DNA of 64,000 bases from Octopus vulgaris (Eukaryota). The notes beneath the pieces are model-generated. The model made no database searches and was not told the origin of the DNA. It saw nothing but the letters and a program-made list of their open reading frames with translations. The number at the start of each line of letters is the position of its first letter. Within the stretch, counting starts at the first letter, position 1. Both the position numbers and the translations under genes were made by a program. The stretch covers positions 17,484,001 to 17,548,000 of the forward strand of contig OX597823.1 of the NCBI GenBank assembly GCA_951406725.2, given 5' to 3'. Below are positions 4,448 to 49,208 of the stretch, one piece after another.

Positions 4448-4634
4448 ATCTACAGAAAAACGAAAGACGAAGACAGGTGAATAAGCAACAAGCAGGTGTA
4501 TTACTCTGACGCTCGGGAAGGTGAGAAAGTCTTTTACGTTTCGAGCCTACGCTCTTCAACAGAAAGGAACACAAGGAAATAAACAGAGAGAGAATGAAAA
4601 AAACCTGTGGATTTAGTAGTCAATCATGGTGACA

Positions 4635-5897: not shown

Positions 5898-6032
5898 AAT
5901 GCCCTGAAGCAGTACTAGACAGTGGCTAAAGAAGAAGAAGAAGAAGAAGAAGAAGAAGAAGAAGAAGAAGAAGAAGAAGAAGAAGAAGAAATGCCCAGTG
6001 TCACTTTGATGGCATGCACTGCGCTCTCACTC

Positions 6033-6033
<1 letters not shown>
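5898..6033. mobile_element. Remnants of non-coding element X (its two termini only, split by (GAA)n)
   Basis: aaatgccctgaagcagtactagacagtggct and cccagtgtcactttgatggcatgcactgcgctctcactc match the two ends of the copies at 9861-10418 and 10660-11114. Confidence 0.75.
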
Positions 6034-6065
<32 letters not shown>

Positions 6066-6081
6066 TAATAATAATATTATT

Positions 6082-8453
6082 AGGATGCCTCCTTGGCTAG
6101 TTAATGGGTTAACATTCCTGCTTCCAAAAAGTGAAGAAACAAATGAACCAAAAAACTATAGACCCATAACCTGCTTAACAACTATGTACAAAACACTAAC
6201 ATCTGTCCTGACGGAATATACCTATAGTTTTTTAACAGACAGCAGCATATTCCCTAATGAACAGAAAGGATGTAAACGTGGATCCTACGGCTGTAAAGAC
6301 CAACTACTCATCAATAAGATGATCTTAGAAGATTGTCACAAACGACACAAAAACTTATCAATAGCCTGGATAGACTATAAAAAGGCTTTTGATAGCCTAC
6401 CACATAGCTGGATTAGGAAATGCCTTGAAATGTATAAGATAGCACCAACTCTGCGAAACTTCTTGACTGTAAGTATGAGATCATGGAGAACCACACTAAC
6501 TCTGAACAGTGACAGTGAATCCCTAAATGCTGGTGATGTAAAAATTTCGTGTGGCATTTTCCAGGGTGACTCACTGTCACCACTCCTCTTTTGTTTATCC
6601 TTACTACCTCTCTCAAAGCTGCTCAATGACACGCAGTACGGGTATAAAATGTTTGATAAAAATATAAATCATGTCGTTTACATGGATGATATAAAGCTTT
6701 TTGCAAAAAATGATCAACAACTCAAGGGCTTACTAGCGATAGTCAAACAATTCAGTGACGACATCAGAATGCAATTCAGCCTCGATAAATGTGCAAAGGC
6801 TACCTTTATCAAAGGAAAAATGACAGAAACATCTAACGTTAACCTTGACCAACAGAATGTCATAAAAGAACTAGACCCAGCGGAGAGCTACAAGTACCTA
6901 GGGGTAATTGAAGGGAACGGAATAAGGCATTCAGAGATGAAGGAAAGGATCAGGAGAGAATGCTATCGAAGAGTGAGAGCAATACTCAAGACAGAGCTGA
7001 ATGCAAGAAACAGGATCGAAGCGATCAATACATTAGCTATACCAGTCGTGACTTACAGTTTCAATATTGTTAACTGGTCAATTACTGAAATATGTCAGCT
7101 CGACAGAAAAATAAGGAAACTGTTGACAATGCATAGAATGCACCACCCTAAGGCAGATACAGAACGACTCTATCTGCCAAGAAAAGAGGGAGGCCGTGGT
7201 CTTTTGCAACTGGCAATAACAATGAAGATTGCTACAATTGGCCTAGACACCTACCTGAAAAACTCTGAGGACTGGATGTTAAAACTTGTCTCAAAACATG
7301 AAAACAAGAAAGCATCATACTCAGTCACAAAACAGGCAAAGGAATATCTAAGTGAATTCCGAATACAACCAATTTCGGAATTAGAGATAGATATACAAGA
7401 AACAAGCACAGAAAAAGCTAGGCGCATGAAAACCCGTGCCAAAACTGCGGCCTTAGATATTCTGAATAATAAATGGCAAGAAAAACCTCTCTATGGCAAA
7501 TACCCAAAGAGAGCGAATAATGCAGATATCGACAAAGCCCTGACCCATCAATGGCTAATGGCCTCTGGCTTAAAATCTGAAACAGAGGGGTTTATCATAG
7601 CAGCTCAAGATCAATGCCTACCAACAAGAACCTACCAGGCCAACATATTAAAGATCAGAAGCAGTCCAACGTGTCGTGTATGCAAGCAACAAAATGAAAC
7701 CATTGACCATGTGGTCTCCAAGTGCAGTCTTCTAGCGCCTACAGAGTATCTCAACAGGCACGATAGAGCTGCACAATATATTCACTGGGTAATCTGTAAA
7801 AACCTGGATTTGCCCCATGAAAAAAACTGGTGGGAACACAAACCACCTCCAGTGCTTGAAAATGACCACATCTCACTCCTCTGGAACTTCACCATTCAAA
7901 CTGACAGGAAGATAGATGCAAATAGGCCAGACATCATATTGAAAGACTTCAAACAAAGAACATGCCTCCTCATTGATATGACTGTCCCAATCGATATAAA
8001 CGTATCTGTCAAGACCTACCAAAAACTGAGCAAATATAAAGATCTTGAAATAGAAATCAGCAAAATGTAGAAGCTGAAGACTAAAACAATACCTGTTGTC
8101 ATAGGTGCCCTGGGAATGATAGCAAAAGGGGCTGATAGCTACCTAACTCAGATACCAGGAAACCCAAAAATGGCAGAAGTTCAAAAGATAGTGCTCATGG
8201 GAACTGCTCATATCCTACGCAAAATACTCTCTATGTAATCTCAAGGTTTAAAACAAACATAATTTTCGGTTTAAAAAAAAACAAAACAAAAAAACTTTTT
8301 TTTTAGACATTCATTAGTACATCATCCCCACCCCCAAATATATGGCACACTAGGCATAACAACAACATGAACTTCCAACCCTGTTGTCTCTTGAGGTCTC
8401 TGGGTGAGACTTGGAGCCAACTTGTACAAATATAAAGCAAAAGTCAAACATAG
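6082..8453 (+). mobile_element. 5'-truncated R4/Dong-type non-LTR retrotransposon (family 1): RT, CCHC finger, restriction-like endonuclease
   Basis: ORF 6085-8070 has NYRPI, QKGC, WIDYKKAFDS, GIFQGDSLSP, YMDD, YKYLG, CRVC..ETIDHVVSKC, RHD, RPDI, KLSKY. A premature TAG (likely from TGG) lies at 8068-8070 and the frame continues to 8238. 3'UTR runs into (TAA)n; (TAA)n on both sides. Confidence 0.93.
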
Positions 8454-8471
8454 AATAATAATAATAATAAT

Positions 8472-9780
8472 GGAATATGAGTGAAGTAAAGAATATAGAT
8501 AGGAAAATACGCAAGCTGCTGAGTTGTAATAGGATGCACCACCCAAAGGCAGACGTAGATCGCCTTTACCTTCCCAGAGCCCAAGGAGGTCGAGGCCTGA
8601 TCCAATTTGAACTAGCTTACAAAACAACCACAATTGGACTGGCCAAATATCTCGAAATATCGAATGACTGGATGCTAAAGCTCGTGGAAAATCACGAGAG
8701 ACGAAAGAAGCTTCATTCTATCATAAAGGAAAGCAAAAAATTTGCTATTGATCTCGTGCAGGATACCCAAACTGAACAACCCGAGGGAAGTACGGCAACT
8801 ATTGTTGCAAAGAAGGTGAAAGTGATGGCAATGAAAAAAGCGCACGAGCAATTGGCTGATAGGTGGGAGGAGAAACCTCTGCACGGCAAATATGTGACCC
8901 GCAGCAAACAAGCTGATGTTGACCAGAAGCAAACCCATCAGTGGCTACGGAGCTCAGGGCTAAAAGCAGAGAGCGAAGGTTTCATCCTGGCTGCTCAAGA
9001 TCGAAGCCTATTAACCCGGAACTACCAGGCCAATGTGATGAAAAATGGAGCAGACCCAAAATGCCGATTCTGCAACGACATGATTGAAACAGTGGACCAC
9101 CTAATCTCTGGATGTAAAGTCTTAGCACCAGTGGAGTATAAATTAAGACATGACAGAGTTGGCCAATATCTCCACTGGCTAATAAGTCGGCATTACGATA
9201 TCAAAACTGCCGACAAGTGGTATAATCACCACGCTGAGGCTGTAACTGAAGGAGAAAATGTAACCATTCTGTGGGACTTTCCAGTACATACAGACCGAAC
9301 CATCAAGGCCAATAAACCAGATATTGTTGTGAAAGACCAAAATAATAAAGTTTGCTTATTGATCGACATGAGCATCCCCTGTGATCATAATATCTCAGCG
9401 AAAGAGTTTGACAAGCTCAGAAAATATAAAGACCTACTCATTGAAATTGAGAAAATGTGGCATCTCAAGGCGGTTACAATACCAGTGATCGTAGGAGCAC
9501 TAGGAATGATCAAGAAGGGAACCGAAAATTATATGAGAATGATCCCTGGCTTACCATCCCTGCAAGAAGTGCAAAAGATTGTCTTAACTGGTACATCACA
9601 CGTATTGAGAAGAGCATTGTCGATGTGAGAACTGTTGCTGCTCATGTATTTAAAAAAAAAATGAACGAACTACTGAGTTTGGTTTAATGGCCTACCAATG
9701 TATACTATGAGTTTCTTTGCCCTAGGAGTCGGGACGACACTCGGCAAGAAATGGAAGCAAATTTGAAAGAAGAAAAAAAA

Positions 9781-10660: not shown

Positions 10661-11114
10661 AATGCCATGATGCAGTAGCAGGCAGTGGCTATCGTGGCTT
10701 CTGATCTTAACTGATTGAAAGTGTTATCATGTACATTGTTTTGGTTACAACAAATATTCTGCTCAATACTACAGATTTGCTTGTCAGAAGTGGCTGTGTG
10801 GTAAGTAGCTTGCTTACCAACCACACGATTCCGGGTTCAGTTCCACTGCGTGTCACCTTGGGCAAGTGTCTTCTACTATAGCCTCGGGCCTTTTGAGCGG
10901 GATGGGCTACACGACCTGAAAAAAATTCTAACTGGGCCCCATCTGCAAGGTCATGCGCTATTAATCTTGACATAAGATCAACATGTCGCGCATATGTGGT
11001 TGTGATGCATGTGCCTGGTGTACACTTATCAGACGGGTAGTCGTTATGGGTATATTGGGCTTCGTATAATTGTACCCCTGTGTCACTTTGATGGCATGCA
11101 TTGTTCTCTCACTC
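10660..11114. mobile_element. Element X copy with its middle replaced by a SINE-B head (10788-10890)
   Basis: X sequence to about 10787, then agtggctgtgtggtaagtagc..cctcgggcc, then X resumes at ccttttgagcgggatggg. Confidence 0.78.
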
Positions 11115-11139
11115 AATAATGATAATAGTAATAATAATG

Positions 11140-11206
<67 letters not shown>

Positions 11207-11208
<2 letters not shown>

Positions 11209-11518
11209 GCGAAAGGGGCTGATTGCTACCTAACTCGGATACCAGGAAACCCCAAAATGGCAGAAATTCAAAAGATAGTGCTCATGGGAACTGCTCATAT
11301 CCTACGCAAAATACTCTCTATGTTATCCCAAGGTTTAAAACAAACTTTTTTTTTTAATTTATGTATTAGACACTCACTAGTACAACACCAAAAAAAAACC
11401 CCAAATATATGGCACACTAGGCATAACAACAACGGGAACTTCCAACCTGTTGTCTCTTGAGGTCTCTGGGTGAGACTTGGAGCCAACTTGTATAGACATA
11501 AAGCAAAAGTCAAACATA

Positions 11519-11519
<1 letters not shown>
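11207..11519 (+). mobile_element. Very short 3' fragment of Dong-type family 1 in (TAA)n
   Basis: Closely matches 8118-8453 (GNPKMAEIQKIVLMGTAHILRKILSM plus 3'UTR); long (TAA)n on both sides. Confidence 0.92.
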
Positions 11520-11578
<59 letters not shown>

Positions 11579-11629
11579 GGATTATTACGAAGCTGCATAG
11601 CGTTACCTTTAATTCTTTTTATATATATG

Positions 11630-11997
11630 CAGGGTGATTCAAAAGTCGCCATACATAGGAACAATTTATCGTTTTATAAGAAACAGTTTATAAGCACAGT
11701 TTTTCTTTTATTTAACAATCTCTATATGGTTACCATTGTTTTTAATACACATTGCAATACGTTTACCCAACTCATTGTAAACTCGTAATTGCATATCTGG
11801 TGATACGTGTGCAAATTAGTTGGTGATGTGTTCCTTCAAATCATCTATGACTTTTATCTTTCCACGATGCATCATTCCTTTCAAATGCCCTTAAAGATAG
11901 AAATCAAGAGGGGTCAGATCAGGGAATCTAGGGGATCTTATAAACTTATTTTTAAAAAAATAGTTTTCCTATGTATGGAGACTTTTGAATCAACCTG
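11630..11997. mobile_element. Tc1/mariner-type MITE
   Basis: TIRs CAGGGTGATTCAAAAGTCGCCATACATAGGAA and TTCCTATGTATGGAGACTTTTGAATCAACCTG in a TA-rich context. Confidence 0.8.
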
Positions 11998-12033
11998 TAT
12001 ATATACAGCTTTTTATTCATATTTATTCCTTAA

Positions 12034-12445
12034 GGCGTAAGAGTGGCTGTGTGGTAAGTAGCTTGCTTACCAGCCACATGGTTCCGGGTTCAGTCCCACT
12101 GCGTGGCACCTTGGGCAAGTGTCTTCTGCTATAGCCTCGGGCCGACTAAAGCCTTGTGAGTGGATTTGGTAGACGGAAACTGAAAGAAGCCCGTCGTATA
12201 TATGCATATTTATATGTGTGTGTGTTTGTGTGTCTGTGTTTGACCCCCTGCCATTTCTTGACAACCGATGCTGGTGTGTTTATGTCCCCGTCACTTAGCG
12301 GTTCGACAAAAGGGACCGATAGAATAAGTACTAGGCTTCCAAAGAATAAGTCCCGGGGTAGATTTGCTCGACTAAAGGCGGTGCTCCAGCATGGCCCACA
12401 GTCAAATGACTGAAACAAGCAAAAGAGTAAAAGAGAGTAAAGAGT
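12034..12445 (+). mobile_element. SINE family B, full length (tRNA-like head, CCTTGGGCAAGT core, internal microsatellite, (GTAAAAGA)n tail)
   Basis: A-box TGGCTGTGTGG and B-box GGGTTCAGTCCC; many copies in the window. Confidence 0.9.
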
Positions 12446-13134
12446 ATATGTACACACACACACACACACACACAAATATGTTCTTATGAAATTGTGAACA
12501 TATTGATAATACGACACTCCATTAATACTGATGGTCTAATTTAACACTTCAATTCATTTTGTCATTCAGTGATTGATATAGTTTCTCATCTTTCTATAAG
12601 ATTAGATATATTACTCCTATAAGAGTACGTGCTCGTGTGTGTGTGTGGGCTTGTTTACGCAAGCGCTTCTACTACCACGACCACCAAGACCACCACCAGT
12701 AACACTCCCCCCCTCCCGCCACTTCATAACGGCCACTTTCACAACTACAAACGTCCTTTTATGCTAACGCAGCTTCTTCCATTCACCAACTTTTGTCGTC
12801 ATCGGAAACTTGTATTACGTTTCGTTGGTCGCTACCGAATTTGTACGGCTTTCTGCTTAGCCCGACACTACCTCCGCTGACGCCGCTGCCACCACTACCA
12901 TCACCGCCGCCGCCGTCACCACCACCACCACCACCCCACCACTCATTCATCAAGCCCTCTGACCCACAGACATGCTGTGTCCTCGCTCTTTCTTTTGTCC
13001 CCCCCCCATAACTACTGCAGTAGTCTATTTTCGTCTCGAGCACCCTTGATTTGCTCATGCAATATTATGTGTAAGCTTCCATTCTCTGTGCTAACAACTG
13101 CATCCAGTTCTTCTCCAGATTGTTACCCTGCTAA

Positions 13135-13565
13135 GGCGGCAAGCTGGCAGAAACGTTAGCACGCCGGGCGAAATGCTTAGAGGTATTTCGTCTACCGTTA
13201 CGTTCTGAGTTCATATGCCGCCGAGGCCGACTTTGCCTTTCATCTTTTCGGGATCGATAAATTAAGTACCAGTTACGCACTGGGGTCGATATAATCGACT
13301 TAATCCGTGTGTCTGTCTTCGTTTGTTTCCTCTGTGTTTAGCCTCTTGTGGGTAGTAAATAAATAAGAATCGTTAGCACGCCGGGCGAAATGCTTAGCGG
13401 TATTTCGTCTGTCTTTCCGTTCTGAGTTCAAATTCCGCCGAGGTCGACTTTGCCTTTCATCCTTTCGGAGGTCGATAAATTAAATACCAGTTGCGTACTC
13501 GGGTCGTTCTAATCGACTGGCTCCCTCTCCCAAAATTTCAGGCCTTGTGCCTAGAGCAGAAAAGA
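13135..13565 (+). mobile_element. Two adjacent SINE-A copies with different 3' tails
   Basis: 13135-13365 ends in ttgtgggtagtaaa; 13368-13565 ends in ggccttgtgcctagagcagaaaaga. Confidence 0.88.
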
Positions 13566-13879
13566 TTGTCACCTTTCTACAACTATCTCCCTGCCCAATG
13601 TTATTCTGGTGAAGTCGTGAAGAGAATCATTAAATTCCTAAATCTAGCCAGTCTCAAAGGAGATCTACAAAGGCCATGCCTATCAGCCCCTTTCTCCAGG
13701 CTTTCTTTTATCTGTTACTATTTTTACTTATTAGACAACAGTCATACTGGAGCACCCCCTTCAAAGGTTTTAATCAAACAGATCAATTCCAGTACTTGTG
13801 TATTGTTTTTAGGTCTGACACTTTTTCCATTAGTCTCTTTTGCCTAACGACTAAATCACGGGGATGTAAAATAAAAAAC

Positions 13880-14078
13880 AGGAAAAATAATCCAGAATCC
13901 TTGTCCGGTACCGGAACGATCCCAAAATCGAATCACTTCGTGCCAGTCACGAGGCCAAACATCCCTGAAAGTTTCATCTGAATCCATCCAGCGATTCTTA
14001 AGATATCTTGTTCACGGTCAAACAAAAAAAAGCACAACTGAAAACAATACCTCCGCCTTCGCTAAGGTGGAGGTAAAA
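13880..14078 (+). mobile_element. Helentron-associated (HINE/DINE-like) non-autonomous element, 3' part
   Basis: aagtttcatc..aatcc..gatatc motif, then a terminal 12-bp hairpin TACCTCCGCCTT-cgct-AAGGTGGAGGTA (14048-14075). Confidence 0.6.
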
Positions 14079-14113
14079 ATCGCCGTCACTACCACCACAA
14101 CCATCACTACCAC

Positions 14114-14151
<38 letters not shown>

Positions 14152-14796
14152 GAAGTGGTTTCTATGTGGTTGCTCGATCTACTAGAAACAACAGTCACTT
14201 ACCCCTCAAATTACACCCGAACAGGTTTAAAAGGAAAGATACATTGGGTGACGTAGTCCTACATGTAACAACTGAGCCGGAATGGATGGTCAAAGTCGGA
14301 ATCCCTTTGCTCACAGGTTTTTCTCAATCAGGATTGACTTGACCTGGGGCTAAACTATAACACTACAATCATATCTACATCACTATGTCCTGGACTGTCC
14401 CCTGCCCACCACGACACGCCTCCATTTTTCCATCGCCACCACCGCCATCACTACACTACCGCCGCCACGACCATCACGACGACGACGACGACGACGACGA
14501 CCACCACCACCACCACCACCACCACCACCACCACCAACACAACCACCGCCGCCACCACCACCACCACCACCAATTCTGCTACGGTTTCCTGCGGAGCCTC
14601 AATGTGGTCGTTCGTTCTTTTAGAAGTAACAGCCAAAGCACCTTAGGTTACAGCCCTCATTTTAGAAAAAGAACACGCTGAGTAATTATAATCTATCCCT
14701 AGGTTCACTACACATATGAAAAAGACGAAAATGTCACGTCTGGAATGTCTTCAATCATAGGTCTGCAGGATCGGTTTCGGCGAGGTACTAAACAGC

Positions 14797-14828
<32 letters not shown>

Positions 14829-15006
14829 CAAAATTGCAACCACAACAGCAGCAGTCACTGCCATCGCCGTCGGAATTTCGTCTCAAATTTCATTGGTTGA
14901 TGCCCCTTCCTCGGTTCCCTGCGGTGTAAAATGTGATGCAAAAAATATTGGGTCGGCGAAGGAGAAAATATATTTTACCACGAAATACATTAATACTCGA
15001 AATAGC

Positions 15007-15065
<59 letters not shown>

Positions 15066-15703
15066 GTTTTTCTTTATCACTTTCCCTTTTGCTCTCCCCT
15101 TGTCCCTTCCGTAGACACACATTGTCTGCCTCACTTTCTCTTTCTCTTTCTCTCTGCCTTTGCACGCTGTGTCTTTCAATCACACACACACTCTCTCTCT
15201 CTCACACATACACACACCTTCGCACTCTTTTCGATCTTTCTCTTGCCTCTCTCTACTCTACACTGTCGTCTGCTAATGAAATTTCAACATTTACTTACAT
15301 ACCAGTGAAATTGACTCAGATTTAATTAAGTTTTCCAATATATCATTTTCCTCAATAGTAATTAAAACTCCTCTGTAATATCAAATACAGCTTAGTATAC
15401 AACAAACACACAACACCAAATAGTTATATAGAATTCGGTCAAATATGGTTACGCCCACAGAATGTCATGGCTAACTAAGCCGGTGGTTTGTGAGGGATCG
15501 AATTATTGATTGGGAGAGCCATGCTGAGCGAAGGTATAGCTATGTAGTTAAGAAATTCGCTGCTCAGGCATATGCTTCTGGGTTCAGTTATACTATATGA
15601 CACCTTGGGCAAGTGTCTTCTGCCACAGAGCTTCGGATTAACCGTAAAAAGTATGATTTGAGTGGAATTTGGTTGACAGAAAGTGCATAGAAGCCGCTGT
15701 GTA

Positions 15704-16214
15704 CCGTAAATCCTCGAGTATAATCCGCATTTCCCCCCCAAAATTTAAAGGTCAAAATCCCTAGTGCGTACTATATACGAGGTTAAAAATGAAGAATATT
15801 TTCCAGCAATGTCCGAATCTCTATTTGCTGTCCGGCAATTTTTATTCAGAAGCAATTTTGTGATGTCGGGCGCGAAAATACCTTAAGCTAAGCCTGAAAG
15901 CAATGAAGTCATAAAAGAATCATCAATAACTTGCAGTAAGCAACATTTTTTAAACGTTATTACTGTTATTTCTTTATTTTCTGCAAACAAAATGCACAAA
16001 AAAGCTATACATTTGCATTATGTTATATATACAATAATATTAAAGGACGTTACCATATACATTTTTACAAACCAAGGACGTTATATAGACCTCCTTGACT
16101 CAAGTTAGAGAAGGGGTGCGTATTATACACATGGTTTAGGTTTTTCAGTGGCACAACCCTCTAAAATCACCTGCGTATTACACTCAAGGGCGGACTATAC
16201 TCAAGGATTTACGG
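15704..16214. mobile_element. MITE with CCGTA TIRs (Tc1/mariner/pogo superfamily), TA target duplication
   Basis: ta|CCGTAAATCCTCGAGTATAATCCGC ... GCGGACTATACTCAAGGATTTACGG|ta; sits at the microsatellite position of a degenerate SINE-B head (15530-15700). Confidence 0.88.
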
Positions 16215-16244
16215 TATGTATACAGACATACTTACATGTACATA

Positions 16245-16461
16245 CAAGAAGGTGCTGAAAAGTTCCTGGCTTTGGATAAAAGAAAATACGGGAGTATCAG
16301 TTAATTATGATTTTATTCAGCATATTCCCCTCTCAGATTCACACACTTATTGCAGCAATCCTTCAGGTTTTCTAAGCCTTGTAAAAGAACTTGGAAGGTT
16401 GGGCCTCCAACCAAGCCTTTTACGATACCCCTAAAACCAGGATCTGTTCAGCACCCCCTTG
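16245..16461. mobile_element. Small mariner-like MITE
   Basis: Imperfect TIRs CAAGAAGGTGCTGAAAAGTTCCTGGCTTT and AAAACCAGGATCTGTTCAGCACCCCCTTG. Confidence 0.65.
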
Positions 16462-16577
16462 GGTATATATGTATATATATATATATATTTACTATAACCT
16501 CACATATATGTATGCATTGTTAGCTAGTATTTATGTATTATGTATGTATGTATGTATGTATGTATGTAGGTAACCCA

Positions 16578-17169
16578 TCTTATACATAAATGGCAATTTC
16601 TGTCTGTCTATCCAACTGTCGGTCTGTTACCATCTTGCTGCCTACACCAGTGAACCAATCTTGACGAAACTTTGCATACATGTTAAATTAACATCCAGTT
16701 GAATTATAGGGGAGGACAAAGTTGTGTAAACGACAAATATGGAATGGCAGTGGGTTGGTAACGTTAAAACAGTTGTCATTCAGGGATATACAAGCGACGC
16801 TGCACACATACTTTTGTAAATACACAGATACGCACACACACACACACACAATGCAGACACACAGACATGCACATACACACACATACGCATAAGTAACTTT
16901 TAAAACGCCGAGGAAGGGAAAGAAAAGTGGGTGTCACAAATACGTAGCTTTAAGGAGAAAGGGGGTAAGTTGACAACAATTGTTCACAGGTGGCTTTTCT
17001 GCTGTCCATCGCAGAGAAACACTCATACAAATACACACACACATACATACATATATACATACATACATACGTACATACATATGTCTACTATACTCTATTT
17101 TAAACTCGTGATTACTAGTGTGTACGTTTGTAAATGTGTGTGTGTGCGTGTGTGTGTGTGTGTGTGTGC

Positions 17170-34956: not shown

Positions 34957-35127
34957 CATATATATATAGGAAAATGTGTTGTTGAAAATGCACCGAAATT
35001 TCAAAAACCCGTAAATGTTTAAAATACATCTATTTACATATATACCAAACTAGTTTCAACAATATCTTTTTTTTTATCAATGGTAAAAGTTTAAAATTAG
35101 AAAAACATCTTTAAAAGTTGTTTCTAC

Positions 35128-36797
35128 TTGACTAGATTTGACTGCAAAACCAGTAACTTCTATGGACTTCCCAAAATCCACAAAAGTGAGGCCCTAAACG
35201 AAGCCTGTAACAAATCAACTTCTATAGTCATAAATATTCCAGACCCGAGAGATCTCAAAATGAGACCAACTGTGACTGGTCCCTCGTGGGAGACACACAG
35301 ACTCAGTAACTTTATTGACGTTCTCCTCAAACCTATTCTCCAACATATGCTGAGCTTTATACGGGGTGATGTGGACTTTTTAAACCATCTCCCGAACAAA
35401 ACCAGAAAAAAAATCCCTCCAGATCTCATTCGATGTAATAAACCTCTACACCTCAATTCCTCACGAATACGGAATAATAGCCATACAATACAGGCTGGAA
35501 AATTCCCAAATGACATTCCTGACAGAATCGGAAAAGAATTCATCGTTGAAGAAATAAATTCATCCTACAGAACAACTTCAATTTCAACGAAAACACTTAC
35601 AGACAAACATCGGGCACAGCGATGGGAACGAGGGTAGCGTCTACTTTTGCCAACCTTGTCATGGCATACTTGAAAGTGCATATATACGAACACGCTAGAT
35701 GGAAATTTGGAGACAACTTCCAAAAATACTTACTCACCAAATGGAAACGCTACCTGGATGACTGTCTCATCCTGTGGCCACATAACCTTGAACAACTCTC
35801 AAAATTTAAAAACTTAATCAACAACATTAACCGCAGTATCCAGTTTACAATGGAGTACAGCCACAAACAACTACCCTTCCTGGACATCTTAATAATAAAG
35901 AGAGATACTGAAATTGAAACCGACATCTTCTTCAAACAAACGGACTCAAAACAATATCTTCTATTCTCCTCTTGCCACTCAAAACATACTAAAATAAATA
36001 TACCGTTCAACTTAGCGAGAAGAATTTGCACGATTGCATCAGATACCGAAACTCGAGAAAAGCGACTGCAAGAACTTAAAAACACATTACTAGTTAGAAA
36101 ATACCCGGTCAGTCTAATCAAAAATGGAATAGAACGTGCAAAAATGATAGACATCCAAGAGTTACGGATGACACACTTATGACACACTTAAAACTCTATC
36201 TTACATATCAACACACAATCCAAGAAACATGGAACCATACAACATCATCCACCAAAACATACCTCTCCTTATGAAGGATCTACAAATGAAAAAGGCACTA
36301 GAAAAAAAATGTATTAAAAGCTAGCGACAAACGCAATCCCTAAAAAAATACTCACCAGCACCAAATTACCCACCAAAAATACAACCCCAAAAGTCAAAAA
36401 GTCGAACCGTCCTAACTGCGGAACTTGCATCTTCCTCTCAGAGGGTTCAACATACAAATTTAAGTCAGGTCAAACTTTTACCATAAAATATCACTTCACC
36501 TGTGCTTCGAAGAACTTAATCTATGTTCTTAAATGTGGAGGTTGTGGTGGTGAGTACATTGCTCAAACTAGCTTAACTTTGAGGGATAGACTTACGGTGC
36601 ACAGGCAACAAATCCAAGAACCCACTACTAGGAATATTCCCGTAAGCAAGCACCTAGACCAATGCCCCGTAGACATAAACCCTAAATACCAAATCTTCCA
36701 TCTCTATCAATGCACTGGAAACGGTTCAACCCAATTCCGTTTAAATACAGAAAACATACTGATTAAAAAATATAAACCACAGCTGAATATCCTTTAG
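35128..36797 (+). pseudogene. Penelope-like retroelement: reverse transcriptase and GIY-YIG endonuclease, frameshifted
   Basis: FYGLPKIHK, MRP, MGTRVASTFANL, WKRYLDD, IQFTME, LPFLD, SSCH..HTK; then NLIYVLKCGGCGGEYIAQT..LRDRLTVH..SKHL..E..LIKKYKPQLN. Confidence 0.93.
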
Positions 36798-47175: not shown

Positions 47176-47340
47176 ATCCAAACAAGAAAACACAAAAAAA
47201 AAAACACAACAACGCGAGGACGTGGAACAAATATAGTATTATTGGACGCTCAGGAAAGAAGGAAAGAAGGGGGGGTTTAACGTTTCGAGCGGAGCTCTTC
47301 GTCGGAGACATAGGAGAAGGAAAGACAGAGGAAAAAATCA
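47171..47340 (-). mobile_element. Element HH-2 (copy b), hammerhead-like motif at 47275-47309
   Basis: gtct-CCGACGA-a-gagc-tcc-gctc-GAAA-c-GTT-aaac; (TA)n flanks. Confidence 0.68.
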
Positions 47341-48347
47341 TATATATATATATTGCATTTTTTATGCAACATGTCTATGAATAAGTTTTTTCCACAGACA
47401 AAGCCACAGCATCATGCATGTCTGTCAATGATATATATACGTTTAACATGATACACAGTTGGTATTTATATACATACATATATACATACACACACACATA
47501 TGTGAAGAGAAGAATGGACTTTATTATAAACACCTAATTTGTTGCTCTTAGACACTTTTCATGAAACTTACAAATTTACTGGTAGGGAGACCTTCTCTCT
47601 GCATCCTCACAATCGACTTAATTTTAGTAACTCGGAGAATTAGTATAAAATACAAACATATTCAAGAAGCATTAAAAAGAATTAATTGCACGATGAATTT
47701 CTAAAAGATCGATATTTCTTAGCGACTAAAATCATTTGCAATTTTTGAGCAAGCATGGAGAAAACTTCCTATTTGTTTCGGCTTAATTTAACTTCATCAG
47801 AGAAGCAAATCTTTTGTAGTGCTTCGCGAAATAGTGTTGAAAAGATCACTGACAAAATATGCAAAATATACAAAGGATATGGGTTCGACTATCACGCTGA
47901 TAAAAAGGCCTTCCTTTTTTTCTGTCGAGAGCTTATATGCTTCTTTATTAGACTATTTTCCTTAGTCATTGCACAGTAATCACCATAAACTGTAAGCTTA
48001 TATGAAAATACCATTTTTATTATATAGAGTATTGTAAAAACGGCGCCGTATAAAAAACCATTCGCACCGACAAACTGGTACGTTAGTTGGGAGATGAAAA
48101 TACAATTGTTTATTGGTTAAATAACTAGGAGTCGCCGTTCTTATGGTAATGACGCTACATTTATGGTATATTTATATCTACTTAACCCTTTTTAATGATC
48201 TATGAATCAAATATAAATACTTAATAATACAAATATATCAAATCTACACTAAACGACGTAAGTTAATAATACAGCTTTACAGAATTTGAAAGAAAGCAAA
48301 AGAAGACATTTTGATGAAAATCATTTTGGATTGCTAAATCAAATATT

Positions 48348-48579
48348 TACATTATTTACATTCGACGGATATTTGTCCTCATCTTGTTTGATGTTAACAC
48401 AACGTTTCGGCTGATATACCCTCCAGCCTTCTTCATGCGTCTTGGGGAAATTGTCTTGGAGAACCCAGGTTCGAAATTTCCCCCAAACACTCGAAGAAGG
48501 CTGGAGGGTATATCAGCTGAAATGTTGTGTTAACAACAAACAAGATGAGGACAAATATCCGTCGAATGTAAATAATGTA
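48348..48579. repeat. Palindrome P1 (arms about 105 bp), each arm a hammerhead-like unit
   Basis: tacattatttacattcgacggatatttgtcctcatcttgtttg.. pairs with ..caaacaagatgaggacaaatatccgtcgaatgtaaataatgta. Confidence 0.9.
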
Positions 48580-49208
48580 CATAATTCCTCATTTATTAAA
48601 TATAGTACTGTATAGATCAAATATTGTTGTTTTTACTATTATTGTTGACCCGAGTACAGCACTGACCAAGCAGAATTCTGAGTAAAGGTGTTCATCAGAA
48701 ATTATCAAATACTGTTTATAGTGTATATAAAACAATGTGACCCAATCTCTTTCCTTTTTAAAGACCCTCAGAATATATTTGGGAGAGATTTGGCTGCTAA
48801 ATTTAACGATTCGAGAGACCAAAACAAGCTCCGTCGTTGGCCTAGTGGACATTGGACTACATTTTCGTATGTGTCCTTTCTTTTTTAAGACGACAGTGTT
48901 TGAATTGTTGGAGATTTGGCCGTCACTTTTTGCAGGTTGTGCAATAGTATACAGACTGACACAGACGTTAATTAAGTGTTACGCTTTGACTATAAAATAT
49001 GATATAATTAGCGCCATACTAAGTTTAAGTTAAACATCGTTTCATGTAATACGTACCAGCTGCTTAGATGACGACAGTTAAAACATGGTTATTAATAGAA
49101 CAGAAAGTGCAAAATAATCTGAAATAATGCCTAGATATATTTATATCTCCCTCTGAAATGAATCTTTTTTTTTGCACTCACTCCCACCTTCACTTACTCA
49201 ATCACCCT

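Follow-up and report, generated by a model that had tools for sequence, protein, structure and literature searches.

How did a near-perfect palindrome with a hammerhead-like motif in each arm arise at positions 48348-48579 of the Octopus vulgaris DNA analysed here, and is the palindrome itself the unit that moves? An initial annotation of this 64,000-nucleotide stretch (the window, to which all coordinates refer) had proposed a protein-free derivative of a Penelope-like element (PLE), built from two ribozyme arms, in which the whole palindrome is mobile and a transcript of either strand carries one hammerhead.

Structure of the palindrome

The near-perfect inverted repeat was confirmed, with arms at 48341-48452 and 48475-48586 (112 nt each, 91% complementary, 22 nt between them), or of 105 nt with eight differences inside the limits first annotated, and the plus strand of the palindrome was predicted to fold into a single hairpin of -171.9 kcal/mol, a stability (z = -28) that no shuffle out of 200 matched. 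The spacer of about 22 nt had been described correctly in length but not in nature, as it consists of 6 nt of filler followed by 16 nt of direct copy. The locus was resolved into a left inverted copy of a repeat (48348-48452, minus strand), which is a 5'-truncated 3' end lying at family depth, with loose ends at 48344-48351 and the tail absent; a junction filler (48453-48458, plus strand), private to this insertion, which copies 48439-48444 (a 7-nt match including the next base); and a right direct copy (48459-48579, plus strand), also 5'-truncated, whose first 16 nt form most of the former 'spacer' and which is colinear with an O. bimaculoides translation (P0002).

The right limit had been placed at 48579, but the insertion appears to extend to about 48612, owing to a one-sided tail of ~33 bp (48580-48612, plus strand; 27 bp when counted from 48586). 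A probable target-site duplication of 13 bp with one mismatch (48335-48347 paired with 48613-48625, both plus strand) lies outside these parts. The insertion is old, given that its locus was common to two of the four organisms sampled by the contig runs described below and that its arms differ at those 8 of 105 positions. No second copy was found within the 64-kb window. The best Rfam match at E values up to 10 in 48200-48700 was MIR9486 (57.6 bits, below the cut-off of 100), a generic hairpin match.

Hammerhead motifs of the two arms

Both of the motif strings initially annotated were recovered letter for letter. The left motif (48396-48441, minus strand) and the right motif (48486-48531, plus strand) have the form of minimal type-I hammerheads, each having an added A, G as the first base of stem II, GAAA followed by one base and GTT, and a stem I of 4-5 bp. 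The AACGTT palindrome described in place of stem III is intact in the left arm but not in the right. A minimal-hammerhead descriptor, which tolerated up to two core changes and was drafted after the motif had been seen, gave six matches in the window, whereas 40 Markov simulations yielded 0.025 per 64 kb. The Rfam check suggested by the annotation returned no hammerhead, either at the gathering score across the window or at E values up to 10 across 48200-48700, where six weak and irrelevant matches were obtained.

It was also correctly noted that neither copy keeps a perfect CUGANGA: the left core, ATGAAGA from 48436, has A at core position 3, and the right core, TCGAAGA from 48491, has U3 and C4, the right motif also carrying two CpG-type changes. 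The C3-G8 pair expected of an active hammerhead, or a compensated pair in its place, was found in neither arm, the combinations present being A3-G8 and U3-G8; the natural covariant is U3-A8 (PMC3088659). In PAc, a Poseidon element of Anolis, cleavage is lost when C3 or G8 alone is changed, with insertion unaffected (PMC11167929). Core damage is nonetheless no proof of inactivity, since hammerheads with U4C retain some activity in vivo (PMC3088659).

When the left arm was folded as an isolated 61-mer, the prediction gave A3 as paired with the cleavage-site U17 (probability 0.83), which lengthens stem I and would remove the cleavage-site geometry. The isolated arms folded no better than shuffles (z of -0.5 to -1.5), forcing stems I and II of the ribozyme fold within the hairpin was predicted to cost about 62 kcal/mol, and the antisense arm is transcribed before the hammerhead arm whichever strand is read. 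Since neither arm has C3-G8 and a read-through transcript would fold into a 100-bp hairpin, burying the motif, we infer that both motifs of this insertion are inactive. The expectation of one usable hammerhead per strand was hence not upheld; the associated suggestion that a transcript forms about 100 bp of double-stranded RNA stands in its geometry, as a prediction, but not in the usable ribozyme supposed to lie on that transcript.

Abundance of the repeat family and its core position 3

Positions 47950-48480 were compared with contigs of four public sequencing runs, one organism each, with 11,081-17,126 contigs aligned per run; run X1 may come from the sample that yielded the window. Summed contig depth over 48346-48435 reached 0.9-8.9 million, against 25-74 on the flank (runs X1 and X3; X7 and X13 cover the flank little or not at all), and at 48344-48351 the contigs passed from the arm into AT-rich DNA of heterogeneous sequence (agreement 0.41-0.47). 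Although summed depth is not equal to copy number, this gap of five orders of magnitude identifies the arm as the 3' end of a very large and very abundant repeat family with many different flanks. Depth drops towards the centre, but since short contigs are clipped at the private changes of this copy, the drop was not taken as a sign of truncation. The stretch at 47950-48075 is the edge of another, less abundant repeat, with a summed depth of thousands to tens of thousands.

Changes at individual positions among the contigs were mostly CpG decay, at 5-24%. No change was listed at position 48436, which is core position 3; in X1, T>G was counted at 48030 alone, T>A at 48016 and 48432, and T>C nowhere, and among the rows listed no run showed G8 changed to C or A at a level of 5% or above. 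At least 85% of the X1 depth aligned over core position 3 (1.3 million summed depth) was found to read A, so A3 is a trait of a large subfamily and not a private mutation. Copies with C3 were represented by 40-74 contigs per run, clipped at 48435, a clipping that masks the true share of C3; the shares of A3, C3 and U3 are all uncorrected for it.

In translated relatives, core position 3 was C (a proline codon) in 29 of the 38 motifs parsed from a set of 34 proteins, from which two unrelated long matches had been dropped and in which three were unparsed. Proline was likewise encoded in 61 of 66 motifs from a wider set of 73 proteins (17 of them motif-free), whilst histidine at this codon was absent from the parsed motifs of both sets. 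These relatives are cluster representatives picked for an open frame, mostly from a sister family, and do not amount to a copy census. The full hammerhead core, CUGA(U/A)GA, was present in relatives, supporting the hammerhead ancestry that had been claimed for the arm. A consensus lacking CUGANGA, named beforehand as evidence against the proposal, was encountered in part, with A3 in the X1 majority given above and C3 dominating the translated relatives. A 21-nt pattern of the arm was also sought in metagenome contigs, where its two matches were both dismissed as isolated chance 21-mers.

Junctions of family copies

Behind 48452, 154-313 contigs per run shared one continuation, comprising the 16 'spacer' letters reversed and then family sequence that is absent from this copy. 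As these contigs carry the letters of 48459-48474 and then more of the family sequence, this segment is direct copy and not spacer. Indels occur across the insertion's own junction (48455-48457), where depth was 229-252, 537-665, 28 and 30-48 in the respective runs.

Among the contig joints listed (15 of 22), six tie an inverted arm to a direct copy at 48459, with the inverted arm cut at 48375, 48386, 48390, 48395, 48396 or 48408; another listing adds 48381. The 48375 junction likewise carries filler copied from its own arm. The remaining listed joints were unexplained skips within the arm (eight) and an opposite-strand joint (one). With inverted arms of several cut points joined to a direct copy, it appears that other copies are also head-to-head, each with its own junction, the variety of junctions being drawn from about ten contigs. 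A shared centre, which would have marked the palindrome as the mobile unit, was thus not observed, the junctions of other copies lying at seven or more other points. Six of the nine direct copies listed begin 5-9 nt upstream of 48459, a clustering that is partly a selection effect, as the listing favours such rows. These starts lie beside a small near-palindrome of family sequence, recalling the palindromes that occur at the inverted junctions of rotifer Penelope-like insertions (PMC3846280).

One-sided tail and target-site duplication

The loose ends of family contigs were compared with the reverse complement of the right 'flank' of the palindrome. Majority lines before 48348 agreed with it at 19, 19, 20 and 23 of 30 letters and those before 48344 at 24, 23, 22 and 25 of 30; matches were counted by hand, and all eight rows compared fell within 19-25 of 30. 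For the A/T positions beyond the arm, single rows gave p = 0.004-0.12, the four runs not being independent. In the X13 loose end, the sole C and the sole inner G coincide with a C and a G of the window. Translation gave independent support. Among 13 close relatives picked from 36 protein matches, the tail was present in five, a break occurred at the arm end in six, and two were unparsed. Judged from these alignments, a tail of about 33 bp appears to be present on the right side only and to be conserved in a subset of the family.

Beyond this tail, 48616-48625 is identical to 48338-48347, these being the inner 10 bp of the 13-bp direct repeat. Scores as high were reached by 10 of 1000 shuffles and by 2 of 88 neighbouring stretches, corresponding to p of about 0.01-0.02 at a single locus, and no empty site was seen, X7 and X13 being uninformative on this point. 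The last bases of the left copy also resemble the arm end, so its edge could shift by as much as 6 nt. The direct repeat at 48335-48347 and 48613-48625 is a probable target-site duplication. Judging by the loose ends before 48344 and the relative P0008, the arm end may carry a 9-nt unit in differing copy number, unless this is an alignment artefact; a unit of 9 nt is frame-neutral.

Translated relatives and the search for a parent element

A plus-strand frame at 48460-48612 is open for 51 codons, running through both the motif and the tail, and matches the colinear O. bimaculoides gene model P0002, tail included. Relatives begin this frame with an in-frame ATG just upstream. The open frame may be a relic of the N-terminus of a parent protein, or may be an effect of how the relatives were found. 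In another instance, the model of O. bimaculoides dystrobrevin beta isoform X1 (P0001) starts with translated arm (window equivalent about 48496-48570), which stops where the arm has the word GTAAAT, and this suggests an exonised arm copy that uses GTAAAT as a splice donor.

An autonomous PLE sharing the arm, which the annotation had recommended looking for, was not found: with one frame searched, none of 36 and none of 73 protein matches was RT-like. The longest protein in the set of 73 was 297 aa, the two long matches among the 36 were unrelated repeat proteins, and no long protein starting with the hammerhead-crossing frame was present among the matches of that one frame. The copy itself is protein-free, as had been claimed, in that the insertion holds no ORF for a PLE reverse transcriptase or GIY-YIG nuclease. 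With no such ORF in the copy or in a parent found by these searches, the locus was filed as a PLE-type insertion and not as an element.

A frameshifted Penelope-like coding relic lies elsewhere in the window (35101-36797, plus strand), with weak matches to both RVT_1 (E 0.009) and GIY-YIG (E 0.07) and a CxxC motif preceding the nuclease part. It was rejected as the parent of the arm, having neither an adjoining hammerhead nor any DNA match to the arm. A sister hammerhead family (P0003, P0007, P0010, P0012, P0014, P0022 and others) occurs as 43-codon (129-nt) units that are arranged head-to-tail and have the full core; two or more motifs occurred in 8 of the 73 proteins, and 6 of 10 intervals were of 43 aa (129 nt).

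Origin of the insertion

We consider it most likely that the locus is one old insertion of a very abundant, non-coding, hammerhead-bearing repeat end, integrated through the GIY-YIG endonuclease and reverse transcriptase activities of a PLE, and that the palindrome was made on insertion and is not itself the mobile unit. The Penelope-type origin originally proposed is supported by an inverted truncated copy, a one-sided tail and a probable short duplication: the 3' end is present twice, truncated and head-to-head, the family tail follows the right copy only, and a direct repeat of 10-13 bp brackets the whole. This anatomy has already been published for PLEs. In Pen2a_Av of rotifers, the inverted pLTR is accompanied by a 9-bp duplication and, optionally, a 31-bp tail; head-to-head joins are the common form, and Penelope-like target-site duplications measure 8-10 bp (PMC3846280). 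PLE tails measure 30-40 bp and are often found at one end only (PMC8557442). Minimal Penelope hammerheads lack stem III; they have G10.1-C11.1, a stem I of few base pairs and one additional base following position 9, and pairs of them on opposite strands, 100-700 bp apart, are on record (PMC4209133).

On the model of the PLE literature, the enzyme would make two cuts in AT-rich DNA, one per strand and about 10-13 bp apart, and cDNA would be primed at each break end from two internal RNA start sites, leaving one end tailed and the other tailless. Both cDNAs would end after 105-155 nt, whereupon repair would join their 5' ends. The RNA template may have been a short non-autonomous element or a complete one. 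In Anolis, the enzyme cleaves AT-rich DNA on both strands and starts cDNA at two internal sites whose spacing equals the tail, and ribozyme mutants insert normally (PMC11167929). For inverted copies, the rotifer paper offers the alternative of self-priming on an antisense template (PMC3846280).

An explanation that departs from this one in its template only is that a small repeat of the non-LTR retrozyme type, with tandem units and possibly circular RNA, supplied the stub that Penelope enzymes inserted. We regard such a template as rather unlikely, although it agrees with the features of the insertion. The sister family does form 129-nt head-to-tail units, no coding partner was found, and retrozymes have been argued to descend from pLTRs (bioRxiv 10.64898/2026.07.22.740005); partial tandems, however, are normal for PLEs too, the tandem unit is absent from this copy, a second unit was seen in none of the 13 close relatives, and the motif is minimal where the form given for retrozymes is canonical (PMC7229834).

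The two remaining explanations treat the palindrome as a mobile unit or as a DNA transposon. It is quite improbable that a fixed palindromic, protein-free PLE derivative moves as a whole hairpin, with the varied junctions arising from later central deletions. Long palindromes are prone to central deletion, and such losses from a longer master palindrome could yield the junction variety; the narrow zone in which direct copies elsewhere start (six of nine listed rows, 5-9 letters from 48459) would also fit. Against this, the insertion's own junction has a depth of 28-665 where the arm has millions, inverted arms stop at eight or more places (its own included), a single continuation and not two dominates behind 48452, the tail is one-sided, and two junctions hold filler copied from the neighbouring arm. 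A DNA-transposon MITE, either Tc1/mariner with a TA duplication or Mutator with long arms and a duplication of 9-11 bp, carrying a hammerhead by chance or capture, is more improbable still and was largely refuted by the one-sided tail between arm and repeat and by the non-uniform centre. It would account for TA at 48348-48349 and 48578-48579, for arms of about 105 bp and for the perfect 10-bp core of the direct repeat. Family sequence nevertheless continues across the TA and through the tail, which rules out the TA as a duplication; the right copy of the repeat lies 33 bp beyond the arm end; the centre varies; and chance matches to the descriptor are expected at 0.025 per 64 kb, with relatives keeping the full core. 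The view that the element only looks like a MITE was accordingly well founded, given the one-sided tail and variable centre.

Comparison with known elements

As a Penelope-type insertion, the octopus locus resembles those of EN+ PLEs such as Pen2a_Av in having a head-to-head inverted, 5'-truncated copy with a hammerhead near the 3' end, a tail of ~30 bp at one end and a probable duplication of ~10 bp (PMC3846280; PMC8557442), but differs from them in that both of its copies are cut to 105-155 bp, with no ORF and no autonomous parent found. Its motifs share with the minimal type-I hammerheads of metazoan PLEs the lack of stem III, the extra base between positions 9 and 10.1, G10.1-C11.1, a 5-bp stem I and palindromic letters around positions 15-16, and opposite-strand hammerhead pairs have already been recorded in Schistosoma (PMC4209133). 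They depart from the published forms in having A3 (left) or U3 and C4 (right) with G8 unchanged, where the covariant described is U3-A8 (PMC3088659).

Like PAc, the octopus family ends a few tens of nucleotides beyond the hammerhead and has two end points one tail apart and AT-rich targets; PAc, however, is autonomous, with an ORF that starts in the ribozyme, whereas the octopus copy has only the 51-codon frame across the motif (PMC11167929). Animal non-LTR retrozymes are similarly short and non-coding with a type-I hammerhead, and are thought to depend on PLE enzymes, as proposed here for the octopus insertion (PMC7229834; bioRxiv 10.64898/2026.07.22.740005). Unlike them, the octopus copy has no tandem units, and its motif is minimal and damaged.

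No published description of the family of the arm was found in the literature searched, although Dfam or Repbase may hold it, and the available text and supplement of an O. vulgaris repeat paper contain no mention of hammerhead or palindrome (PMC13282606). The palindrome is a clean miniature case of an insertion pattern already described and carries little weight as a novelty; its use is in keeping such hairpins from being filed as MITEs or microRNA precursors.

Core damage in other repeats of the window

Two further minimal-hammerhead families were observed in the window. Two copies of another such repeat end, at 47305 and 38186 (both minus strand), are 91% alike over 176 bp; both adjoin (TA)n and share the core CCGACGA, with U4C in common. 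A third family, at 4562 and 51795 (minus strand) and 54856 (plus strand), has U at core position 6 (A6U), and each of its copies has a GTA cleavage triplet and a preceding pyrimidine tract. All seven motifs of the three families in the window depart from the perfect core, and within a family the members have a characteristic change in common.

We tentatively raise the idea, which we hold to be doubtful, that the most amplified Penelope-dependent repeats of this genome (the A3 subfamily, in tens of thousands of copies, and the U4C and A6U families) spread after their hammerheads had been disabled, the loss either favouring insertion or not hindering it. If true, the idea would provide a natural in vivo counterpart of the in vitro result for PAc. 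With its C3 and A3 subfamilies, so large a family would allow one to ask from the genome alone if competence for cleavage comes before amplification, comes after it or restricts it.

The window also contains two tandem LINE-type coding pieces on the plus strand (6010-8070 and 8471-9628), the first of which has RVT_1 (E 1.6e-29) and zf-RVT domains.
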